Made by a program: the position numbers and the translations under genes. The notes beneath the pieces are model-generated. The model was not told the DNA's origin. It saw nothing but the letters and a program-made list of their open reading frames with translations, and ran no database searches. Shown here piece by piece: positions 9,428 to 21,465 of a stretch of DNA of 64,000 nt. Source of the stretch: Vicinamibacterales bacterium (GTDB lineage: Bacteria; Acidobacteriota; Vicinamibacteria; Vicinamibacterales; JAMQPK01); contig DATEEI010000035.1 of the NCBI GenBank assembly GCA_035281225.1, forward strand, positions 9,607-73,606, given 5' to 3'. How positions within the stretch are numbered: the stretch's first letter is position 1; each line of letters opens with the position of its first letter.

Positions 9428-9886
9428 TTACGCAGCCATGCCCTCGTCGATGCGATAGAGCAGTTCTTCGACGAGCCTTGCACCCGCCTCCGTGACAAGC
9501 AGATCGAGCGGTGCCCGTCTCTGGAACTGACGCTTGGCGTCACGAAGCCAGCGCCAGCCGCGCTCGGGTTCGCCGAATACTTCTTCACACAGTGCCAGCA
9601 CCCGTGCCACGCGAACGACACGATCTGATTCATCGCGGCTGAGCGCTTCGCGACGAGCGCGGCGATGAGTGAGCGTTCGGCGAGGCAGAACGAGGGCGTA
9701 GACCTCTTCGTCGGTCAGTCCGGAGTGTCGCAAGCCGTCAATAGCGCGGGCGGGCAGACGTTCCTCCACGAGCCTCATGACATCCTGGTCCGTACGGAGA
9801 CGTTGCACGCCGAGGATCGCTTGGACCCGTTTGAGAATATTCGGGGACTCGAGTGCGGCGGTGTCGAGCGTTATTGCCTCTGTCAT
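9428..9886 (-). CDS. Xre/MbcA/ParS-type antitoxin (DUF2384 toxin-binding domain)
   Basis: The ORF track gives 9428..9907. ATG at 9886 is preceded by AGGAGGGGAG. The C-terminal segment VVRVARVLALCEEVFGEPERGWRWLRDAKRQFQRRAPLDLLVTEAGARLVEELLYRIDEG is DUF2384-like. The gene sits directly upstream of the RES gene. Confidence 0.8.
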   Translation of the reverse strand: MTEAITLDTAALESPNILKRVQAILGVQRLRTDQDVMRLVEERLPARAIDGLRHSGLTDEEVYALVLPRRTLTHRRARREALSRDESDRVVRVARVLALCEEVFGEPERGWRWLRDAKRQFQRRAPLDLLVTEAGARLVEELLYRIDEGMAA

Positions 9887-9972
9887 CTCCCCTCCTGACC
9901 GTGGCATAATTGCTCACCATTCTATGGCATCTTGCCATTTCAGTCAAAATGCCAGCAATTTTTGGCGGCACA

Positions 9973-10218
9973 TCAACTTCGAGTCGCCCCATAACGCTGT
10001 CGAATCGTTTCTGCCAGCCCGATCGTCCAGCAAACCGGGCAGCCGCGCATAGCCACCAACGCCAGCAAAGCCGCCAACAACGATGCGACAGGGTGCAAAT
10101 GCTGCTGGTCGATGGCAAGGTAGAGCAGGGCAAACGCCACAGCACCGCGGATCACATGACCCGTCAGGGTTTGTGTCGCGAACAAGCCAGATGGACTTTT
10201 TCCAAGAAATTGCTTCAT
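9973..10218 (-). CDS. small two-TM membrane protein with a GCPxC motif (DUF2892/YgaP-like); possible sigma-factor partner
   Basis: 81 aa: HVIRGAVAFALLYLAI ... LLAALLALVAMRGCPVCWTIGL. Its ATG overlaps the sigma-factor stop (ATGA at 10215-10218). Confidence 0.55.
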   Translation of the reverse strand: MKQFLGKSPSGLFATQTLTGHVIRGAVAFALLYLAIDQQHLHPVASLLAALLALVAMRGCPVCWTIGLAETIRQRYGATRS

Positions 10219-10754
10219 TTCTTTCCTCGCGACTCATCGCCTTGCAGGTACTCGCGTAGAAGAGCTCGGCCGCGATGAATACGGCTCTTGCATGCTTCGC
10301 GAGTGATGCGCAAGCGATCGGCCGCCTCGACGATGGTGAGCTGCTCCATATCGCGCAGCAGGATCACTTCGCGGTAGATGTCCGGTAGCGACTCCAGCGC
10401 ACGGACGACGTCGATACGCAGCTCGTCCTTTGGAACCTGCGCAAAGTACTCGGCCACGTGCCGCTCCGTCAGTTCTTCCGCGCCCCGTATCAGCCCCAGC
10501 ACGGGAAGCATGCACAGCCGGGTGACCACGCGGAATATCCAGCCCGCTATGGCCAGAGGGTTGCGCACATTGCCCAGGCGGCGGTACAGCACGATCAGCG
10601 CTTCCTGAACCACGTCCTCAATGGCCGTCGTGCGATGGCACTGGCGCCTTGCATAGCGGCGGATGTCGGGCTGCAGTTCGAGCAGCATCCTCTCTAGAGC
10701 GACCGGATCGCCCGCCTGGGCGGCAGCAAACAACGCTGTATCGACCCGGATCAC
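10215..10754 (-). CDS. ECF-type RNA polymerase sigma-70 factor
   Basis: Region 2 reads DVVQEALIVLYRRLGNVRNPLAIAGWIFRVVTRLC. Region 4 reads REVILLRDMEQLTIVEAADRLRITREACKSRIHRGRALLREYL. The ORF track start is 10793, but GTG at 10754 overlaps the upstream gene stop as GTGA and is the more likely start. Confidence 0.85.
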   Translation of the reverse strand: MIRVDTALFAAAQAGDPVALERMLLELQPDIRRYARRQCHRTTAIEDVVQEALIVLYRRLGNVRNPLAIAGWIFRVVTRLCMLPVLGLIRGAEELTERHVAEYFAQVPKDELRIDVVRALESLPDIYREVILLRDMEQLTIVEAADRLRITREACKSRIHRGRALLREYLQGDESRGKK

Positions 10755-12341: not shown

Positions 12342-13262
12342 TTAGCCCGAATCAGGCAATCGCGCGTGCAGAATGCCTCGACGCGCCTCGTCCAACAGTT
12401 CAGTCGGTGAGACCAGTTGCGCGGCCTGCACTGATCCTGACATCACGACGTGTGCGCGTAGCCGTTCGTCGCCGGTGCAGATGAGCACCGGCAGCGCTAA
12501 CGCCTGGAGCATCTCCAGGTCGAACGAGTCGCCTCGCCGCTTCAGTGCGTCCGCGTTGTAGGACATGCCACCGCCAAGGGCAAGTGCAATAAAGCGAGAG
12601 CGACTACGGATGTAAGCGTCGTTTTGCCGGCGAAGGGTTGCTTCGTCCGGGCGACCACCGAAGAACGCGTGGAACTCAAGTTCCGCGACGTGGTCTTGCG
12701 TTGGCTGATATCCGGCGAGAGCCTGCTTCATCTCGCGAATCATGCCTCGCCATCCATCGCGATGTTCCTCCGACAGCCTTGTGGCGAGGTTCTCCGAACT
12801 CGCGATCCTGTACTGAACGCCATCAGAGCCCTCAAAGGTAGGTCCCGCTTCAAGGTCGGATGGCGCGCGCGCCTGGGACAAAAAGCGCCAGATCGCGATG
12901 CCATGCTCGCGGCGAGAAATCGAAGTACGTCGTGGTGGAGCAAAGAACAGGGACTGCGATTCGTCGTCGCTTGGAAAAAGTGGGGATTCTGGGTCCAGCA
13001 ACGCCGTAACGACACCAACCCGCTCCGACCAGCGGTTCCACGCTATGCGTCCTTCAAAGAGCGCCAGCGCCAATTCGGGCACAGCGTTGTTCGCAAGGCA
13101 CACCGATATGCCTGCCTCCTTCGGAACAAGTCTGTCAAAGTCTCTATATTCGGCATCGGCATACAAGATGCCGCGAACCGCCGACGTATCGAGAAGCACA
13201 CGCAGCAGCGGCACCCGACTAGATCCCTGTTCTTGTTCTTGCGGCTCTAGGTGACGACGCAT
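12342..13262 (-). CDS. hypothetical PIN-like nuclease with a large insertion
   Basis: The ORF track gives 12342..13391, which overlaps the upstream gene by 145 nt. The internal ATG at 13262 reduces the overlap to 16 nt. RVLLDTSAV (first acidic motif) and GDSFDLEMLQALALPVLICTGDERL (distal acidic motifs) resemble a split PIN fold. Weak call. Confidence 0.45.
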   Translation of the reverse strand: MRRHLEPQEQEQGSSRVPLLRVLLDTSAVRGILYADAEYRDFDRLVPKEAGISVCLANNAVPELALALFEGRIAWNRWSERVGVVTALLDPESPLFPSDDESQSLFFAPPRRTSISRREHGIAIWRFLSQARAPSDLEAGPTFEGSDGVQYRIASSENLATRLSEEHRDGWRGMIREMKQALAGYQPTQDHVAELEFHAFFGGRPDEATLRRQNDAYIRSRSRFIALALGGGMSYNADALKRRGDSFDLEMLQALALPVLICTGDERLRAHVVMSGSVQAAQLVSPTELLDEARRGILHARLPDSG

Positions 13263-14014
13263 TGGAACCACTCGATGCCCTGCTCGGCACAGACCAACCG
13301 GTATTGGGGCGGGATGTACTGGCAACAGATTGCGACGCGAACGCGTTCCTTCGCAATACTGTTCTGCGCACAATACAGTTGCCTGTGCCACAGGATCTGT
13401 CCAACAGCTTTGGCAAGTTCGTCAGCCTGAACCTTAACCTCGACGAGCATGAGTCGCCTCTCGCTGTCCTCGAACACTAGATCGACGAAACCGATCTCGC
13501 TATCCTGTGCAACGTGGACATCTCTCCCTTTCAGGGTGAGACCGGTTTCAAGAAGGTGCGGCTTAGAAGTGACCTGATCGATCAAGAGTTTGTGGATACG
13601 GCCTTCCATCCCCTTGCCGGAACGAGTTGTCCACGGTTGGCCTCCGGCGATCTTCTCCAAGTACTCGAGAGGCTCGATCTCATTTCCCGAGATGCGGCAG
13701 GGAAACACTTCGCATAACCGCGTGCCATCGTTAACAAGCAGAACCTGCTCTGGCAGCCATGCGAATGCGGATTTGCGGCTGCCAAAACTCCGACTCAGGC
13801 CGACTTTGCGTCTGACGGCGAAATCACGTAGCCCAAGCTTCTCGAGCCAATCGCGCTGCGCCGCGTACGTGGGAAACCGCGTGTCGGCGTCCTCCGTTGC
13901 GACCTCCCATCCTTTCGACTCAAGCTCGCCGAGCAGATGGCACATCCGGTTATGCGAAGCCTGGCGATCGGGATCCGAAAGAAGCGATGGCCTGTAGAAA
14001 TAAGTGATTCTCAT
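13247..14014 (-). CDS. NucS/DUF91-like PD-(D/E)xK endonuclease domain protein with an unknown N-terminal domain
   Basis: The C-terminus reads LLETGLTLKGRDVHVAQDSEIGFVDLVFEDSERRLMLVEVKVQADELAKAVGQILWHRQLY. This matches the NucS C-terminal/DUF91 pattern (iDll..d..g.lvvvE.K ... a.gQ.l.Y). Confidence 0.6.
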   Translation of the reverse strand: MRITYFYRPSLLSDPDRQASHNRMCHLLGELESKGWEVATEDADTRFPTYAAQRDWLEKLGLRDFAVRRKVGLSRSFGSRKSAFAWLPEQVLLVNDGTRLCEVFPCRISGNEIEPLEYLEKIAGGQPWTTRSGKGMEGRIHKLLIDQVTSKPHLLETGLTLKGRDVHVAQDSEIGFVDLVFEDSERRLMLVEVKVQADELAKAVGQILWHRQLYCAQNSIAKERVRVAICCQYIPPQYRLVCAEQGIEWFQCVVT

Positions 14015-14085
14015 TGGCTGCTCGATACTTTTCGGCCGAGCCTAGCACGGGGTATCACAGAAGCCGTACGTGCTGTGACCACGAC

Positions 14086-14116
14086 AAAAAGCGGCTGAAA
14101 CCCGAAGCGACACCGC
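14086..14116 (-). terminator. weak candidate terminator downstream of the cyclase gene
   Basis: On the minus strand an imperfect hairpin GCGGTG...CAGCCGC (14091..14116) is followed by TTTTT (14086..14090). The stem is short and imperfect. Confidence 0.25.
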
Positions 14117-14203
14117 AGCGGGCGCCGCCCAGAAACAAAAAGGGAATATGCGCTGGCCAAGTGGGATAGAGGAACCGCACTGGCGCCTGGTCGCCGATCA
14201 CCG

Positions 14204-14941
14204 TCACACGGCCCACCACCAGTTGGATCGGTAAAGCGTTACTCCCGGTAGTTTCGTCCAGTTTCGCTGCTCCCACATGTTTCGCTTCGGGCTTCCTCCC
14301 TCTTTTGAGGACTCATTCATCCTCTCGTAAACGTCAGCGGTGATCCACGTCGCAAAGTCGCCTTCGCGCAAATTCGAGAGTTTGGCGGCGTAATTTGCAG
14401 CCCGCCCCACCCACACAAGATCGTTCGAGCCGCGGATGCCGGTTCGGGCCACAAAGATCTCGCTCAGGTCGACACCAACGGCGTGCGTCAGGTTATACGT
14501 CGAGTCCGGATACTGCTTCTTGATTGCCGGGTTGATGATGTGTCGCACTGTATAGTTGATCTGCAGCCCGCATTTGGCAGAATTCGTCCGTTTGTGGTCT
14601 CCGACAAAGACAGCCATGATTCGGTCGCCATCAAAGGCCGTGATCTCGCCATCTCGTTGGCGAACAATCTTTGACGCGCAGTGCAGGAATGCCTTATAGA
14701 CTTCGGCAGCGAACGAGTCGCTGTGCTCGTTCACAAGGGCTGTCGACTCTGCCAGATCGGCGTAGAGAACGGCGGCTTCTTCAAACTTGACCGCGTCGTT
14801 GCCGAGACCCACATCTTCGGCTTCCGGAATGACGTATCCCTTCCGTGTGTTCCACCTGGTTGCGAATATGTCTTGGACCTCTGCAGCGAGTTCTTCTTTC
14901 AGGCCCATCGGAGTCTCTTCGCTCTCCCCATACGCGACCAT
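14204..14941 (-). CDS. pycC: Pycsar-type class III nucleotide cyclase (PycC-like)
   Basis: The ORF track gives 14204..15076, which overlaps the upstream gene. In-frame ATGs lie at 14941 and 14908. Class III cyclase motifs are AAVLYADLAESTALV (metal Asp), EITAFDGDRIMAVF (second Asp) and VWVGRAANYAAKLSN (Asn/Lys). The size and single-domain layout are typical of PycC. Confidence 0.8.
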   Translation of the reverse strand: MVAYGESEETPMGLKEELAAEVQDIFATRWNTRKGYVIPEAEDVGLGNDAVKFEEAAVLYADLAESTALVNEHSDSFAAEVYKAFLHCASKIVRQRDGEITAFDGDRIMAVFVGDHKRTNSAKCGLQINYTVRHIINPAIKKQYPDSTYNLTHAVGVDLSEIFVARTGIRGSNDLVWVGRAANYAAKLSNLREGDFATWITADVYERMNESSKEGGSPKRNMWEQRNWTKLPGVTLYRSNWWWAV

Positions 14942-14975
14942 TTCGTCGAGTTGTGACTCGAGTCGATGACCATAT

Positions 14976-15512
14976 TCATATCGCCTTCCAGGCGACGTAT
15001 GTCCAACCGATGATGATGAGCCCAATACAGAACAGCAGGATCGCCACCTTGATGTTGTGGTGCTTGCGCCCCGCAATGCCTGCCGACAGGTGGATCTGAT
15101 AAATCCAGTCTTCTCGCAGATCCGCAGGACTAACGCTGTTGAGGCGTTCGCGGTAATCTGCGAGAGTCACGTCGGCGATATGACCGAAATAGGTGATGGA
15201 CTTCGGGCCTCGATCCGGGTGCTCACTTTTGGCCCAACGCCACAATCGTATCCACCACTGATCCGAAGTGCGCGGAAACAGCGCTTGGAGCGACTTCGTC
15301 AGAGCGACGATTAGGAACCCGAACCCGACCAAAAACCACAACTTGTTCTCGAACGAGTTGTGCGGATCCTCAATCCACGCGATCAGCGCCGGAATCAGCA
15401 GCGCCAGAACGCCCGCTTCAACAGCCGTAAGAATGTCGACCTTAACGTCGGCGGCACGCGTCCACTCGTGAATGCGATCGAGGATGGGTTCCAAATCTTC
15501 CGTTTCAATCAT
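14976..15512 (-). CDS. pycTM: Pycsar transmembrane effector (PycTM / DUF5706-like)
   Basis: 178 aa. The N-terminus reads RAADVKVDILTAVEAGVLALLIPALIAW. It is followed by a TM hairpin, ALFPR, SITYFGHIADVTLADYRERL and IYQIHLSAGIAGRKHHNIKVAILLFCIGLIIIGW. This matches my memory of the Pycsar effector (DUF5706) family. Confidence 0.7.
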   Translation of the reverse strand: MIETEDLEPILDRIHEWTRAADVKVDILTAVEAGVLALLIPALIAWIEDPHNSFENKLWFLVGFGFLIVALTKSLQALFPRTSDQWWIRLWRWAKSEHPDRGPKSITYFGHIADVTLADYRERLNSVSPADLREDWIYQIHLSAGIAGRKHHNIKVAILLFCIGLIIIGWTYVAWKAI

Positions 15513-15595
15513 GCGATACCACGCGAATCCTGCGTCTGCCGATCAACAGAGAGCCTCAACATGCATCACCCTGCGCACATCCCGTAGTCGCGACG

Positions 15596-16504
15596 TCAGT
15601 TGTTCGGGCCGAGATCGTTGATGATGTCCCTGATCCGGTTGCAGGCAGGCCCCATCGCAGCAGGCAGATCCTTCGGGTCGTACTTGTATGCGATAGCTGT
15701 GATGCCGCTGAGGTCCGACGGCAACTTCACCTCTTCGCCGCGCGGCTCCAGTAACAGCGACCGGTGCCGTCCAAGCCGTCCCATGAAGAATCCGAGCTCG
15801 AAAATGACGTTGTCGCGGGGCGTGGGCTTCGCCTCACCGCGGCTCTCCGTCAGGTCGTCGGGTTGCGCGATGGCGATCGCGAAGTCCGACTGGTCAAGTT
15901 CGCGTTCAAGGCTTTCCACTGGATAGCAGGACGCCCGAAAAACGCCGTCGGTCCAGATGACGACTGTGAATGGATCGTATTCGAATGCATTCTGAACGCC
16001 CCGTGCGATCGGCAGAGCCTCCACGGACGAGATGATAAACACGCGGATCTTCTCGCGCCGCGTTGTGATGAGCAAATTGCGCTGCATGAGGCGGCGCGCC
16101 AGTTCTTTTGCGATGGCCCGGTAGATATTTGGGTATTTCTGTCCAAGGGCCGACAGCTGCGGTTCGGTGAGTTTTAGTACAACCGAGGGTTCCGCCGCGA
16201 CGACCGTGGCGGAACGGCGCTGCGAGGGCTGAATGGCGGCCATCTCGCCGACACAATCGGTCGGACCCCGCATCGCGACCTTCTTGCCATTCACGAGAAT
16301 CGTGAATGAACCGGCGAGGATCAGAAAGCAGTCTGTATCCTGGCCGTTCTGGTCGATTATTGGGGTATCCGGCACGATCTCGCGGAGCTCGCCGACGGCG
16401 GCCATCTCCTCGGCCAGCGCTTCGTTGCCGCCTACAATCTTCTGCTCTTTGAGCACGTCGACCAGGACGCGGCGTCCGTGCTCACCCTCGAATCGATCCT
16501 TCAT
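15596..16504 (-). CDS. cyclic-nucleotide-binding domain fused to a TIR-like (CAP12/PycTIR-type) effector domain
   Basis: The ORF track gives 15596..16582. ATG at 16504 is preceded by GGAGGAG. The cNMP phosphate-binding cassette reads CVGEMAAIQPSQRRSATVVAAEP. The C-terminal half reads IRVFIISSVEALPIARGV ... NVIFELGFFMGRLGRHRSLLL ... KLPSDLSGI, which fits the TIR-like nucleotide-binding domain family. Confidence 0.8.
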   Translation of the reverse strand: MKDRFEGEHGRRVLVDVLKEQKIVGGNEALAEEMAAVGELREIVPDTPIIDQNGQDTDCFLILAGSFTILVNGKKVAMRGPTDCVGEMAAIQPSQRRSATVVAAEPSVVLKLTEPQLSALGQKYPNIYRAIAKELARRLMQRNLLITTRREKIRVFIISSVEALPIARGVQNAFEYDPFTVVIWTDGVFRASCYPVESLERELDQSDFAIAIAQPDDLTESRGEAKPTPRDNVIFELGFFMGRLGRHRSLLLEPRGEEVKLPSDLSGITAIAYKYDPKDLPAAMGPACNRIRDIINDLGPNN

Positions 16505-16557
16505 CGCCCAATCTCCTCCAGCCGCCACGGAGTTCGATGCTTTCGTCGTGAAGTGGC

Positions 16558-17094
16558 TTAGCTCTTTGTCGAACGCGACCACTCGCTCATATATCGAAGT
16601 AGCTTACGCAGGCCGCGAACTCCAGAGTGTTCGTGCTCGTAGTGGATCGCTACGGTTACTGGCAGTGCATTGGGAGTAAAAGCCATCGCCGAGACATCGA
16701 TCCTCCTGCCTGCGGTAAGCGTCGCGATAAGCAGTATGAGGAAGTTGGCGCCCACCTTCGGATCCTCAACGAGGGACTGCATGGTCGCGATGTCGACCGC
16801 GCTTGGCAACGGCTCGAACGTCGGATGCGAATGCCACTCACCGAGATAGTTAAAGCGCGTGAAGTCCTGGCCCGTGCGAGCAAAGAACGATCTGAGCTGC
16901 ACGTCATGGTTCGCTGGATCACGTACGAACTGTGTGTGCGACCCACCGGATCGCTGCACTGACACGTCGACGACGCGAAACACTCCCTCGCGGACATGCT
17001 CACCCATCATGAGTCCGCCGATCTCCTGCGCCCCCGCTCGCTTGAGTTCCCGACGAATTCGCTGGAGGATTCGAGCCGGCAGGAGAAGCTGCAT
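16558..17094 (-). CDS. cap3: JAB/JAMM metalloprotease (Cap3-like)
   Basis: The catalytic Glu context is AQEIGGLMMGEHV. A perfect JAMM motif follows: HSHPTFEPLPSAVD (H-x-H-x7-S-x2-D). Confidence 0.8.
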   Translation of the reverse strand: MQLLLPARILQRIRRELKRAGAQEIGGLMMGEHVREGVFRVVDVSVQRSGGSHTQFVRDPANHDVQLRSFFARTGQDFTRFNYLGEWHSHPTFEPLPSAVDIATMQSLVEDPKVGANFLILLIATLTAGRRIDVSAMAFTPNALPVTVAIHYEHEHSGVRGLRKLLRYMSEWSRSTKS

Positions 17095-18781
17095 TCTGGT
17101 AGTCCGTTAGCAACTGGATAACGGTCGCGATCTCCGCTGCCGCTTCCGGGGAATCGGTGCCCGCGTCTGTGCGCTGCGGCTGGCCGACGTCGATTGGATA
17201 CGTATCGAATGGCGCCTCGAAAATCCAGCCTTTAGAGAGACCGATCAGGTAAACAGAATTCGGGAACATTGACGGTGTCCGTGCGAGAAGCGTGTCGATT
17301 GCCAGCCGTGCTGCATGTGCTGCGAGCACCGTGACATCCGCATCATCGGCAATCAGAGGTGCTTCTTCGGCGCCGCCGTAGTCATTCGCTGCGCGAGCGA
17401 TCGGCTTGCCCCGGTCAGCGCACCAGGCTTCAATCATGCGGCGCATCGACGCCGGATCAGGTTCGTGATCGGGCCGGTGGCGAGCTACCAGACCACCAAA
17501 GCCGCCGCCGAAGACCTCCGCCCAGACCAACGCCCTCTTACCGAGAGCCACTGCGGCACAAAGGTAGTTGAAGGCAACCGGGTTTGCGGTTGCATCCACG
17601 ATGAGATCGCATCCCGCGAGACTTTCGATCAGCGTCTCGACGCTTCCACTTGCTTCCTGGCCACCGAGGCGGTGCCGGCGCCGTTCGCAGCTCGCTCCCG
17701 GGTTAACCAGCTGAATTCGACGTGCTACGCTGTCGGCTTTGTGAGTTCCGATTTCGCGCCAATCCAAATCATGGCGCACGAGATTGTCGGGCAACATCAT
17801 GTCGTCATCGACCAAGAGGAACTTCTTCGCTCCTGAACGAGCCAACATCACCGCGATCTTGCTGCCGATTGAGCCGCACCCGATGACCGCAACTTTTCCT
17901 TCCGCCAAGGCCGCATGATCCGGGTCGAGTCGAGGCGACGTGGGCGGAAGCACGATCACGGCTGGCTGCCAGACCTGAGCATCTTCGTCGCCAAGACCGT
18001 AAGCGTGTATCTGCGATCCCTGCAGCAGCAACACATGCGAGACGTTCGGAATCGACAAGCCGCGTTCGCGTGCTCCCGCTCGAAACTCAGCTGACGTCTT
18101 CACCGACAGTCGCCGGACGCCTTCCGGCCACCTGAAGATTGCGATCTCCCGCTCCCACCCTTCAGCGCGGAAAGGCTCTGGCATTTCATGCTCGACCCAC
18201 GTCTCGCCGCTCGGCATCGCAATGGAACTAATGGCGTTGACCCATGACTCTTCGTGCAATGCGCCCACAGCTTTGGCCGAGACGACGACGTCGTCGTCGA
18301 CCCTCGCTAACGCCTCGGCCGCACCACGCGTGATCACGAACCGCGTAAACCTGTTTCGCAGGTCCTGTCCGAGAGTGGTCTTGTGACGAGACGGGACGAG
18401 AGCCGCTTCGCCGGTGATACTCTCGCTGCTCAGCAGTCGATAGGCGCTGAGGATCATGTCGGCGCCGGTAATCTCCGGATGCCAATTGTCCGGGCCATAT
18501 TCGAGACACAATTCACCGCCCGGTCCGTACTGGTGCGACGACCAATGCTCCGAGTCACCGCGTGGAAGGACCACAGGTGGTGAGTGCGGAAAGTGATTGG
18601 GGTACCGCAATGACACGGGATAAGTACGCTCGTGCGTCGAAAGATCAATGTCCCAGATGAGACGCAGCGATTCGTCGACCCTGAGCCCGAGCGGCGTCAT
18701 CCACGTAACCTGTGACGCGAGCGTTTCGATCGCTTCCCGTTCGCGTTTGCTGCGCGCGGGATTGTCGAAATACCAGATCAT
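17000..18781 (-). CDS. cap2: E2-like + E1 (ThiF)-like fusion protein (Cap2-like)
   Basis: The N-terminal prokaryotic E2-like region reads YPNHFPHSPPVVLPRGDSEHWSSHQYGPGGELCLEYGPDNWHP. The central ThiF/E1 Rossmann fold reads KVAVIGCGSIGSKIAVMLARSGAKKFLLVDDDMMLPDNLVRHDL ... CDLIVDATANPVAFNYLC. Its ATG overlaps the cyclase stop (ATGA at 18778-18781). Confidence 0.8.
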   Translation of the reverse strand: MIWYFDNPARSKREREAIETLASQVTWMTPLGLRVDESLRLIWDIDLSTHERTYPVSLRYPNHFPHSPPVVLPRGDSEHWSSHQYGPGGELCLEYGPDNWHPEITGADMILSAYRLLSSESITGEAALVPSRHKTTLGQDLRNRFTRFVITRGAAEALARVDDDVVVSAKAVGALHEESWVNAISSIAMPSGETWVEHEMPEPFRAEGWEREIAIFRWPEGVRRLSVKTSAEFRAGARERGLSIPNVSHVLLLQGSQIHAYGLGDEDAQVWQPAVIVLPPTSPRLDPDHAALAEGKVAVIGCGSIGSKIAVMLARSGAKKFLLVDDDMMLPDNLVRHDLDWREIGTHKADSVARRIQLVNPGASCERRRHRLGGQEASGSVETLIESLAGCDLIVDATANPVAFNYLCAAVALGKRALVWAEVFGGGFGGLVARHRPDHEPDPASMRRMIEAWCADRGKPIARAANDYGGAEEAPLIADDADVTVLAAHAARLAIDTLLARTPSMFPNSVYLIGLSKGWIFEAPFDTYPIDVGQPQRTDAGTDSPEAAAEIATVIQLLTDYQNAASPAGSNPPANSSGTQASGGAGDRRTHDG

Positions 18782-20334
18782 GCAAACCCATCCGGTTTCG
18801 CGGGACCTGCCGGTCGACTCGGGAAGGTGAAAGACGAAGGCGCAGGCGTTGCCGGTTTCAGCGACCCGGCCGCGGCCATCGCCCGAGCGGCTTTAGCAGT
18901 GGCGTCATTCTTGTCGGCCAACTCTCTGACCGCGATGTCGTAAGTCAGCCCCGATCGCTTCCGCGATTTCCCGAACACCGCGCGCACTGCATCGTTACCG
19001 CTGTCGTACGCGATGGACCCAATCGCCGTTTCCGTGCCGGCGCAGCGCGACTGCTCGCGTTCGGCGGCAACAACGCCGCGGCTAGCCGAACAGCGTACCA
19101 ACTCGCCCTTGATGCCAAGGCGCGTTACGTTCATCGGTCCGTACTCGAATCCGATGGCCAGGCCAAGACTGCTAGCGTCGGTGCCATTCGCCTTGAGCTT
19201 CGAGATGGCGAGCTCAAAGCTGCTGCGCATGCCGCCGGCGCACAGCGTCTGGTTGCTGATGGTCTCGATCTCGTCCGACGTCTGCGCTGTGCCCTCTACA
19301 AGGAGCCCATGAACGCAGTCGCCGATAAACCGCACTTTCCGGCCGGCGAAGTCGGTGTGAAGCACAGCGTCCAGTTCACTGCGCAGCACATGCAACGCGC
19401 GCACGACGTGTTTAGCGGTGGCGTCAGTTGTGATGTTCTTGGTCACGTAGGCGGTGAAGCCGTCGACATCGGCATAGACCGTAGCCGCATCCTGACGTCG
19501 CGTGTTCTTCACCGACAGCTCTTCGATGTCGAGCGTGCTGAAGGGCGGCGTATGCCCGCTGAAGCCAAAGGCGCCGATAGGACTATTCTTGAGATCGTCC
19601 TTCCATTCCTTCACAATCTCGTCGGCCGTGACATCCAAGGCCGCCTTGTCTTGTGACTTCGAGATCTCCTGGGCGGTGAGCGGCGTGGTGTCTTCGTTGT
19701 CGACGCGCTTCAGACCGAGCGTCTCGCGGGCTTTGTTCGTCAGATAGATTCCCGTCGCCGCCCCTCCCGATGCGCGCTTCGCGGCTTGATTCGCTGGCTC
19801 TCCAAGGAACAGGGGTTCCCGATGGCCTCGGCGTCCGTTGTTCACGGCGAGGGCTTCACCGGTGTCGATCCCCACTCTGACCTTCGCGGCAGGATGGTCG
19901 GCGTCCTCGCCGGTCTGCGCGAGCACGTCGATGATCAGCTGCGCCACGGCGACGGCCTTGTGAATGCGGTCGATCTCCGAGTCATACGGCTTCGCGATCA
20001 CCGAGTGCAGACGCTGATTGTGAAAGTCGACAAAGATGGCGTCCACCCGCTGAAGGGTCCGATGGACGGCTCGGTAATGCAGGTTGAGGAATCGGAGCGT
20101 CCGCCGGTGGCAAGTCTCGCCTTCCACCTCGGTGACGTGAAGCATGTCCGCTAGGTTGAGAATGTCGGCGTAGAGGTGGACGCCGTGGAGGCGGTACGCG
20201 ATGTTCCGAGGCAGGCTGGTCAGGTCCGTCTCGCGCACGAACTTCTTGATCACGATGTCGCCGATCGGAAGGTCAGCGATGCAGGCATCGATGCGCTTCG
20301 CGGCTCGGTCTTTGTCCCAGGTACGTGTAGCCAC
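18778..20334 (-). CDS. tandem class III nucleotide cyclase (two cyclase-homology domains in one chain, PycC-related)
   Basis: The ORF track gives 18778..20415 with a TTG start and no SD. GTG at 20334 is preceded by GGAGGAAGAAGAC and is the more plausible start. Domain 1 motifs are HLYADILNLADM and RVGIDTGEALAVNNGRRGHREPLFLGEPANQAAKRAS. Domain 2 motifs are ATVYADVDGFTAYV, VRFIGDCVHGLL and GLAIGFEYGPMNVTRLG. Confidence 0.75.
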   Translation of the reverse strand: MATRTWDKDRAAKRIDACIADLPIGDIVIKKFVRETDLTSLPRNIAYRLHGVHLYADILNLADMLHVTEVEGETCHRRTLRFLNLHYRAVHRTLQRVDAIFVDFHNQRLHSVIAKPYDSEIDRIHKAVAVAQLIIDVLAQTGEDADHPAAKVRVGIDTGEALAVNNGRRGHREPLFLGEPANQAAKRASGGAATGIYLTNKARETLGLKRVDNEDTTPLTAQEISKSQDKAALDVTADEIVKEWKDDLKNSPIGAFGFSGHTPPFSTLDIEELSVKNTRRQDAATVYADVDGFTAYVTKNITTDATAKHVVRALHVLRSELDAVLHTDFAGRKVRFIGDCVHGLLVEGTAQTSDEIETISNQTLCAGGMRSSFELAISKLKANGTDASSLGLAIGFEYGPMNVTRLGIKGELVRCSASRGVVAAEREQSRCAGTETAIGSIAYDSGNDAVRAVFGKSRKRSGLTYDIAVRELADKNDATAKAARAMAAAGSLKPATPAPSSFTFPSRPAGPAKPDGFA

Positions 20335-20523
20335 GTCTTCTTCCTCCAGGTAGTTCACCCTGCTCGGCTGTGCTTCGGGAGGTAAATCCTGCGGAAGCGG
20401 GCGGAACCGGCTCAATGCACGGTTGACCGATGGTGCCGATGAGCGTACTCTTAAATGGGCCTAGTTTCTAGGACCAGTATAGTTAATATACCCATTCTGG
20501 CAGTGCTCAGCAAGGGGGTTTTT
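20335..20523. promoter_or_regulatory. divergent promoter/operator region between the cyclase operon and the WYL regulator
   Basis: This is a locally AT-rich patch in a GC-rich window. It contains a perfect palindrome CCTAG-TTT-CTAGG (20460..20472) and an inverted repeat GTATA-GTTAA-TATAC (20477..20491). Confidence 0.45.
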
Positions 20524-21465
20524 TTGGACAATGATCGTCGGCGTCGAGGGCCTGAGCAGCGCCTTGAATTCATCGAGTTCCGACTGTATTGGGAAGGGGC
20601 GGTAAACCGGAGCGACCTCGTTGAGCGGTTCGGCGTGTCTGTGCCCCAAGCGTCAAATGACCTGACGGCGTATCGGCAGCTAGTACCCGAGAACGTGGCC
20701 TACGATTTGAGCGGGAAGCGATACGTCCCTGCCACGACCTTCCGCCCGAAGTTCCTGAAGCCGAATCCAGACCGATACCTCGCCCAGTTGAAAGCCATGT
20801 CCGACGGAATCCTCGACGTCACCGATACATGGCTCGCCAGTCAGCCTGACACCGGCGTCTTGCCGATCCCGAACCGACGCACAGACCCGTCAGTGTTGCG
20901 GGCTGTGCTGATGGCCGTCCGAGCAAAGGGCAGCGTCCACGTGGAATACCAATCAACCAGTCCTGAGAATCCGGACCCGATTTGGCGGTGGATCACTCCG
21001 CACGCATTTGGGTTCGATGGACTGCGGTGGCACGTCCGTGCGTTCTGTCATCGTGACAATCGCTTCAAGGACTTCATTCTCGGCCGCTGTCTCGCCGTCG
21101 GCGAGCAAGGTCCCGCCGCCGCAGTGGCCGAAAAGGATTGGCAGTGGCAAACGTTCTTTGAAGTCGTTCTGCAGCCTAACCCAGATCTGGCGGACGGTCA
21201 GCGCCGAGCGGTTGCTCTCGACTACAACATGATCGAGGGGAGGATCGCAGTCCCCGTACGCTTTGCTCTGTTGTACTACTTCAACAAGCGCCTACGCCTG
21301 GATGTCGCCGAGCGGTTTGACAAGCCACGCGAGCGCCCAGTCGTCGTGGCAAACCAGGCGGACTTTGAAGCCGCACTGCAAAAGGCAGACGCCCCGTTAT
21401 CCACGTCAGAGAGAGTCGCGCAGCAAGCTGAAGGTGCCACGGCTTCTAGCCACTTGAGTCCGTGA
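20524..21465 (+). CDS. WYL-domain transcriptional regulator (CapW/BrxR-like)
   Basis: The ORF track start is ATG 20455, but the first 23 codons are AT-rich rare codons spanning the palindromes. TTG at 20524 follows AAGGGGG. The N-terminal wHTH reads RLEFIEFRLYWEGAVNRSDLVERFGVSVPQASNDLTAYRQL. The WYL-like core reads SVHVEYQSTSPENPDPIWRWITPHAFGFDGLRWHVRAFCHRDNRFKDFILGRC. Confidence 0.8.
   Translation: MDNDRRRRGPEQRLEFIEFRLYWEGAVNRSDLVERFGVSVPQASNDLTAYRQLVPENVAYDLSGKRYVPATTFRPKFLKPNPDRYLAQLKAMSDGILDVTDTWLASQPDTGVLPIPNRRTDPSVLRAVLMAVRAKGSVHVEYQSTSPENPDPIWRWITPHAFGFDGLRWHVRAFCHRDNRFKDFILGRCLAVGEQGPAAAVAEKDWQWQTFFEVVLQPNPDLADGQRRAVALDYNMIEGRIAVPVRFALLYYFNKRLRLDVAERFDKPRERPVVVANQADFEAALQKADAPLSTSERVAQQAEGATASSHLSP

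Follow-up and report, generated by a model that had tools for sequence, protein, structure and literature searches.

Does a run of six Pycsar defence genes, holding two cyclases and two effectors, form one system, two unrelated systems or two systems that work together? The question is raised by a 64,000-nucleotide (nt) stretch of a Vicinamibacterales bacterium (contig DATEEI010000035.1), the whole of which is referred to here as the window. In it, a small PycC cyclase and a PycTM membrane effector lie directly behind a tandem two-domain cyclase, Cap2, Cap3 and PycTIR. We conclude, with a probability of about 0.6, that PycTM and the small PycC make up a complete clade B unit behind a separate Type II Pycsar, and that the two modules are separable, recurrently adjacent and most likely cross-wired on cyclic uridine monophosphate (cUMP). 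Clade definitions and products of the cyclases follow PMC11224242 and the preprint 10.64898/2026.08.12.744502. Two samples of loci were compared with the window. The clade A sample comprises 80 metagenome loci with a tandem cyclase 55-88% identical to that of the window, and the clade B sample comprises 80 genome loci from many phyla with small-cyclase homologues of 50-69% identity; the latter loci were searched with the proteins of the window and with a PycTM profile built in this study.

The small cyclase is contained in an open reading frame (ORF) of 290 amino acids (aa) at 14204-15076, which matches the PADLOC profile PDLC00766 (E 2e-102) with the match confined to residues 57-290. Homologues of the small PycC are 230-234 aa long. 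In L170 and L171, the two closest loci with DNA available, the sequence 5' of the ATG at 14908 is unconserved and carries non-triplet indels, whereas conservation covers the ATG itself, the first codons ATGGGCCTGAAAGA and a GAAGAG/GAGGA ribosome-binding site. Profile coverage, homologue length, the upstream indels and the conserved ATG and ribosome-binding site together place the true start at M57 of the long ORF, giving a gene of 234 aa at 14204-14908, and rule out the 290-aa ORF as the real cyclase. With the start at 14908, PycTM and PycC do not overlap and are separated by a 67-nt spacer instead. The small PycC matches the BcPycC structure (PDB 7R65) with an E value of 1.4e-57 over residues 3-234, and shares 50-69% identity with clade B cyclases across many phyla. 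Among 23 small PycC homologues, the metal-binding residues D51 and D95 and the N172/K176 motif are invariant, and so is the uridine triphosphate (UTP) triad Y49/D93/R96, which aligns to Y50/D94/R97 of BcPycC. These BcPycC residues are said to select UTP and exclude guanine (PMC11224242; preprint 10.64898/2026.08.12.744502), and BcPycC was assigned to clade B (PMC11224242). Judged from these alignments, it is near certain that the small PycC is a clade B, BcPycC-like cyclase and that the two genes are a PycTM-PycC pair.

The partner of the small cyclase, a 178-aa ORF, matches the Pfam PycTM family PF18967 (E 3.5e-13, above the curated cut-off) and the PADLOC PycTM profile PDLC02364 (E 1.2e-28). 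Three hydrophobic segments were found, at residues 25-49, 57-79 and 150-178. Homologues with 55-92% identity all carry PF18967 and all lie 5' of a small cyclase. NCBIfam holds no model for either PycC or PycTM. An initial annotation of the locus had called the two genes a canonical Pycsar pair, and this is borne out by the PycC and PycTM hidden Markov models (HMMs), the 7R65 match, the catalytic residues and the adjacent PF18967 effector. Both genes it quoted are real and on the minus strand, and the motifs it cited (LYADLAESTALV, FDGDRIMAVF and GRAANYAAKLSN) are all present; only the cyclase start had to be moved, from that of the long ORF to the ATG at 14908. It had allowed that the 178-aa protein might fall outside the Pycsar effector family in HMM searches, and the PF18967 and PDLC02364 matches place the protein inside it. 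Its remark that the effector precedes the cyclase is correct as an observation and describes nothing unusual. Directly 5' of the clade B cyclase, PycTIR was found in 52-56 of the 80 loci and PycTM in 17 (gaps of -16 to +29 nt), and an effector-first order is the rule for this clade (about 70 of 80 loci). In one alphaproteobacterial metagenome-assembled genome (MAG), L042, a single open frame at 9482-10702 spans both a PycTM-profile match and the small cyclase; a fusion of effector and cyclase is one possibility, a missed stop another.

The closest described system is BcPycC with BcPycTM from Burkholderia cepacia LK29 (Tal et al. 2021; 7R65; 'Pycsar-1' in the preprint 10.64898/2026.08.12.744502), which has the same single-domain class III cyclase of about 230 aa, the same metal-binding Asp pair and Tyr/Asp/Arg UTP pocket, and the same PF18967 three-helix membrane partner. 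The pair in the window differs in being placed directly behind a same-strand Type II Pycsar and in being known here from sequence, and its effector-cyclase spacer is 67 nt, compared with -16 to +29 nt in most relatives. Pucsar (PucC with PucTIR or PucTM, using cyclic guanosine monophosphate) shares the effector-first two-gene layout and the same two effector classes. However, the cyclase of the window has its best match among solved structures in BcPycC and retains the Tyr/Asp/Arg triad, to which the exclusion of guanine is ascribed; membership in Pucsar was rejected on the presence of this occluding triad together with the BcPycC match, without a direct PucC alignment.

The four genes upstream of the pair belong to a system that already has a name. 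Together with the WYL gene they match the arrangement described as Type II Pycsar, a clade A PaPycC with Cap2/Cap3 or E2 for which PycTIR is the usual effector, and which also goes by the name 'Pycsar-like-4', with E2/E1/JAB and WYL (preprint 10.64898/2026.08.12.744502). On this gene content and the matches given here and in Table 1, the four genes are assigned to Type II Pycsar. The tandem cyclase matches PDB 6YII with an E value of 3.2e-174; it has the metal Asp motifs in domain 2 and the Asn/Lys motif in domain 1, and 6YII is treated as PaPycC, a clade A two-domain enzyme (PMC11224242). The WYL regulator is 92% identical to the one at the same position in L005, the nearest genome locus. PycTM and the small PycC are not in the named set and form an extra module beside about a third to half of such loci. 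The PycTIR of the window matches the solved PycTIR 8JSJ (E 2.8e-48), and in alignment to it retains the phosphate cassette GEMA...RRSA, the stacking Arg and the uracil-reading Asn, features defined in PMC11224242. Since PycTIR followed by PycC is the commonest clade B layout, PycTIR was also considered as the partner of the small cyclase, with PycTM inserted between them. This was rejected as the main reading because PycTIR (15596..16582) overlaps cap3 by 25 nt and falls in a well-supported clade of 16 PycTIRs, 13 of which are in tandem-cyclase loci and three in clade B-only loci; its nearest single relative, in L061 (71%), lies 5' of a small cyclase, and the upstream sequence there is too short to classify the locus.

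The core of the clade A loci consists of the tandem cyclase, Cap2/Cap3 or E2, and PycTIR, sometimes with PycTM. A small PycC was found 69-2709 nt from this core in 22 of the 80 loci, and in 10 of the 21 loci with long flanks (at least 4 kb upstream and at least 5 kb downstream). Clustering of the ORFs in the clade A sample gave PycTIR in 58 loci, Cap2 in 47, Cap3 in 44, small PycC in 22, PycTM in 21 and E2 in 20, and every other real family occurs in at most nine of the 80. The reciprocal clustering from the clade B side returned the tandem cyclase (10/80), its E2 (8/80) and WYL (7/80) as the top non-core neighbours. The ten clade B loci with a tandem cyclase represent about six lineages (an acidobacterial MAG, Sphingomonadaceae, Hyphomicrobium, Salinarimonas, an alphaproteobacterial MAG and Pyrinomonadaceae), and the gene following the tandem cyclase in them encodes Cap2/Cap3 or an E2-only protein (PF20298 + PF20272). 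Among 400 other genomes sampled evenly from the phylum, three contained clade A and two contained clade B; a single genome has both, at a distance of 1.9 kb and with tandem-E2-PycTIR convergent to PycTM-PycC. Adjacency of 28-48% is to be set against base rates of about 0.5-1% of genomes, a large enrichment in samples uncorrected for relatedness. The six-gene order of the window itself is stable within its lineage: it recurs with about 80% aa identity in L171 and a JGI contig, and with 40-60% in L132. The adjacency of clade A and clade B is a recurrent and strongly non-random association. The modest new element is a measure, taken from both sides, of how often the two Pycsar types neighbour each other, together with the one-effector variants described below; the pair itself is ordinary. 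No description of this association, of its frequency or of the one-effector variants was found in the literature searched. One sentence in the preprint 10.64898/2026.08.12.744502 concerns multi-cyclase Pycsar-1 loci, which likewise hold more than one Pycsar-type cyclase, but it mentions neither the clade A and clade B pairing, nor its frequency, nor one-effector variants.

The Type II Pycsar and the PycTM-PycC pair are two separable modules rather than one obligate operon, as is evident from their variable orientation and order and from the polyphyly of the adjacent small cyclases. Relative to the Type II core, the small-cyclase pair lies on the upstream side in some loci and on the downstream side in others, and on either strand, with convergent as well as divergent arrangements; L035, L086, L114 and L174 have the modules on opposite strands. 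Many clade A loci with 8-10 kb of flanking sequence have no small cyclase. The small PycC is missing from 58 of the 80 clade A loci, and from 11 of the 21 with long flanks, which sets PycTM and the small PycC outside the Type II set. A PycTM homologue with 66% identity pairs with small cyclase genes in a quite different neighbourhood, with no Type II genes in the 4.9 kb of its upstream flank. In a phylogeny of 106 small cyclases, the members with tandem-cyclase neighbours are polyphyletic and need at least 14 state changes, so the association has been made or lost repeatedly. Coming from WYL, the DNA of L005 is 81.6% similar to the window as far as two-thirds of the way into cap3; the similarity breaks within cap3 and resumes inside the small cyclase (70%), with a different PycTIR allele and no PycTM in between. 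This pattern indicates an exchange of effectors while the cyclase flanks on both sides were conserved. The island belongs to the accessory genome: among 24 same-genus genomes, any island homologue was found in one, with 44% identity and an internal stop.

Two further loci touch on the fate of such modules. In L134 (14690-15076), the tandem cyclase, Cap2, Cap3 and PycTIR are followed by a truncated PycTM of 128 aa, no small cyclase is present and an unrelated gene on the opposite strand comes next, which looks like a decayed second module. A third Pycsar unit is located elsewhere in the genome of the window, on contig C115 (L002, 541-1904). There, a PycTM at 541-1134 on the minus strand (PDLC02364, E 1e-24) is divergent from a small PycC at 1173-1904 on the plus strand, which matches PDLC02367 (E 3e-76), is 38% identical to the small PycC of the window and sits on a very long branch of the small-cyclase tree.

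The arrangement of the six genes is uneven. The first four, from the tandem cyclase to PycTIR, overlap by 4, 95 and 25 nt, and the last two are spaced by 83 and 67 nt. In agreement with the initial annotation, the pair lies 83 nt behind the effector with the cyclic nucleotide monophosphate (cNMP)-binding and TIR domains, on the same strand, and the terminator scan between them is empty. A scan of the 83-nt and 67-nt spacers detected no consensus terminator or promoter, although non-sigma-70 promoters could escape it. Folding of the spacer RNA was no better than that of shuffled controls (z 0.98 for 15513-15595 and -0.01 for 14909-14975). The spacer 15513..15595 is unconserved in L170 and L171 except beside the start codon, and close relatives show no conservation of the spacer 14909..14975, which measures 107 nt in them. 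At roughly 14085-14129, about 75 nt past the PycC stop, lies a hairpin with UUUUU behind it; it is the sole such element in the six-gene block, and is tentative since a simple consensus terminator scan missed it. The spacers and the 3' hairpin would allow read-through from the Type II operon, whether or not an internal promoter is present. Such a promoter in 15513..15595 is possible, and the six genes may be co-transcribed as one operon or form two units.

Several lines of evidence bear on whether the two separable modules share a signal. Two cyclases with one effector were found in L005, L071, L076, L114, L149 and the Sphingomonad (L022) group; for the last two, long flanks were searched with the PycTM profile. 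PycTM is the only detectable effector, with no PycTIR, of the clade A cores L126/L127 (3273-4633) and L150 (13945-14442), which are E2-only or Cap2/Cap3 loci. An alignment of 106 PycTIRs shows the uracil-reading Asn in 37 of the 38 sequences from clade A-only loci and also in the PycTIR of the window. The same position in clade B-only PycTIRs is N in 21 of 43, with S (11) and G (5) among the others; this variation reflects either an alignment slip in the helix or PycTIRs of which some read another base. Clades A-D are reported to convert UTP to cUMP (PMC11224242). The two-cyclase, one-effector loci, the UTP triad of the small cyclase, the uracil-specific Asn of PycTIR and the effector families common to both clades make a shared cUMP signal likely. 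The product of either cyclase, the ligand of PycTM and the cross-activation are predictions from such features, and we put the shared-cUMP, cross-wired model at roughly even odds.

Two observations stand beside these variants. The PycTIR of L005 (9079-9959), located between cap3 and the small cyclase, is in two frames split near 9660, by a frameshift or an assembly error; with no PycTM present, the assembled locus combines two cyclases with just one effector, which may be broken. Two small PycC-like genes with one effector lie in tandem in L173 (322-2312), L049 (9290-10690) and L052 (10001-11428), and in L172 (4088-6056) two such genes flank a single PycTM on opposite strands. Multi-cyclase loci thus occur within the small-cyclase clade as well.

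Under the cross-wired model, the small BcPycC-like uridylate cyclase would make its signal when triggered by infection, and PycTM would kill or arrest the cell once the cyclic nucleotide rises. Either cyclase would raise cUMP, and cUMP would fire both the NAD+-depleting PycTIR and the membrane-disrupting PycTM, so that two independent infection sensors and two killing routes would be joined by one signal. A wider proposal, which we offer tentatively and hold to be somewhat less probable than its negation, is that clade A cyclases regulated by Cap2/Cap3 or E2 and clade B pairs form an integrated dual-sensor network on cUMP, with the two cyclases, each under its own regulation, feeding common effectors; this would be a defined multi-cyclase subtype and not a chance stack. 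Such a network might respond to a wider range of phage cues, or protect the alarm from phages that inhibit one cyclase or the conjugation step. The second effector might then have been dropped in some lineages, leaving two cyclases and one effector.

Several other explanations of the block were weighed. From the likeness of motifs, the initial annotation had suggested a local duplication history, in which the small cyclase arose from one domain of the tandem cyclase. The class III cyclase motifs are indeed common to both, but the BLASTP alignments are short and low in identity: domain 1 aligns over 33 aa (39%) and domain 2 over 136 aa (26%). Clade B enzymes of many phyla share 50-69% identity with the small cyclase, which has its best structural relative in 7R65 (E 1.4e-57). 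The tandem form has near relatives of its type in various phyla and its best structural relative in 6YII (E 3.2e-174), and all sampled clade A relatives have the two-domain build, as does the crystallised PaPycC (6YII). We therefore reject local duplication, to which next to no probability can be given; by these comparisons the two cyclases are members of old, separate clades. Highly improbable, though by a lesser degree, is one obligate six-gene operon in which PycTM and the small cyclase would depend on the Cap2/Cap3-regulated tandem cyclase, for example through a signal relay. The six same-strand genes, the terminator-free gaps, the terminator-like hairpin found only after PycC and the same order in L171, L132 and the JGI contig would all fit such an operon, and relay-like signalling was raised for multi-cyclase loci (preprint 10.64898/2026.08.12.744502). 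Nevertheless, most clade B loci are pairs of PycTM-PycC or PycTIR-PycC that stand alone, and BcPycC-type pairs were reported to suffice for defence (Tal 2021, as summarised in PMC11224242). In many cases the modules also lie on opposite strands (L035, L086, L114, L174), and the gaps that set off the last two genes of the window from the overlapping first four do not favour an obligate unit either.

The separability that tells against an obligate operon would equally suit two fully independent Pycsar systems in one island or cassette, with different or insulated signals, such as cyclic adenosine monophosphate from clade A and cUMP from the small cyclase, and a co-location due to co-transfer. 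Each module is complete alone and also found apart, their orientation varies, and the island is absent from 23 of the 24 same-genus genomes. Other points count against a cross-wired pair of modules. Defence genes cluster in islands generally. The clade A metagenome sample consists of relatives 55-88% identical, taken without phylogenetic correction, and co-occurrence at the genome level rests on one genome. E2-associated 'Pycsar-like-4' cyclases were predicted from AlphaFold3 ligand scores to prefer ATP (preprint 10.64898/2026.08.12.744502), which favours independent systems as well; if this is true, the two modules would be insulated. On the other side, adjacency of 28-48% is far above generic island clustering given the base rates, and the two types are mutual top neighbours. 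Without a common ligand, loci with two cyclases and one effector are difficult to account for, and both the uracil-specific Asn in 37 of 38 clade A-only PycTIRs and the reported production of cUMP from UTP by clades A-D (PMC11224242) are at odds with separate signals. We consider fully independent systems unlikely, if a serious contender. The initial annotation had left the choice between stacked independent systems, one composite system with two signals and a shared signal with dual effectors; the last fits best in view of the one-effector loci, the UTP triad and the Asn, and a single obligate composite operon is unlikely, since the modules occur in every orientation and also apart. It had also reckoned with homologues of the two units never co-occurring, and the small PycC near 22 of the 80 clade A loci speaks otherwise. 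Separable modules that are recurrently adjacent and most likely cross-wired on cUMP thus remain the preferred reading.

Table 1. Genes, spacers and putative transcription signals of the Pycsar block, with supporting matches
Feature	Position	Strand	Evidence or remark
Six-gene run: tandem cyclase, Cap2, Cap3, PycTIR, PycTM, small PycC	14204-20415	-	
Terminator-like hairpin, then UUUUU	14085..14129	-	RNA fold of 14050-14206; tentative
PycC, single-domain clade B cyclase, 234 aa	14204..14908	-	PADLOC PDLC00766, PDB 7R65
PycTM-PycC spacer, 67 nt	14909..14975	-	GAAGAG ribosome-binding site 6 nt 5' of ATG
PycTM, three-helix membrane effector, 178 aa	14976..15512	-	Pfam PF18967, PADLOC PDLC02364
PycTIR-to-PycTM spacer, 83 nt, between Type II operon and pair	15513..15595	-	
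PycTIR, cNMP-binding domain + TIR NADase	15596..16582	-	PF10137 + PF00027, PADLOC PDLC00731 E 1.8e-133
Cap3-like JAB peptidase	16558..17094	-	Pfam Prok-JAB E 6.7e-14, PADLOC JAB E 8e-61
Cap2-like E2-E1 fusion	17000..18781	-	PADLOC E1-E2 PDLC00855 E 1.3e-200, Pfam ThiF
Clade A tandem two-domain PycC (PaPycC-like), 545 aa	18778..20415	-	PADLOC PDLC00762 E 5.9e-215, PDB 6YII
Divergent WYL-domain regulator	20455..21465	+	Pfam WYL, PADLOC WYL

On the 3' side of PycC, the region 12342-14014 of the window holds a NucS-C-like nuclease gene at 13247-14014 (PF01939, E 6e-7), and a 349-aa ORF overlapping this gene has no family match.

Taken alone, the pair in the window is one more clade B Pycsar, and the comparative result is the more useful one: a rare system, present in about 1% of genomes, neighbours another rare system in a third to half of cases. 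The adjacency and the one-effector variants point to a cooperation of signal-making enzymes in cyclic-mononucleotide immunity that is mentioned only in passing in published work. If this is true, bacteria would combine ubiquitin-like-primed and unprimed sensors on one second messenger, and such loci would make a simple setting in which cross-talk of defence systems could be tested.

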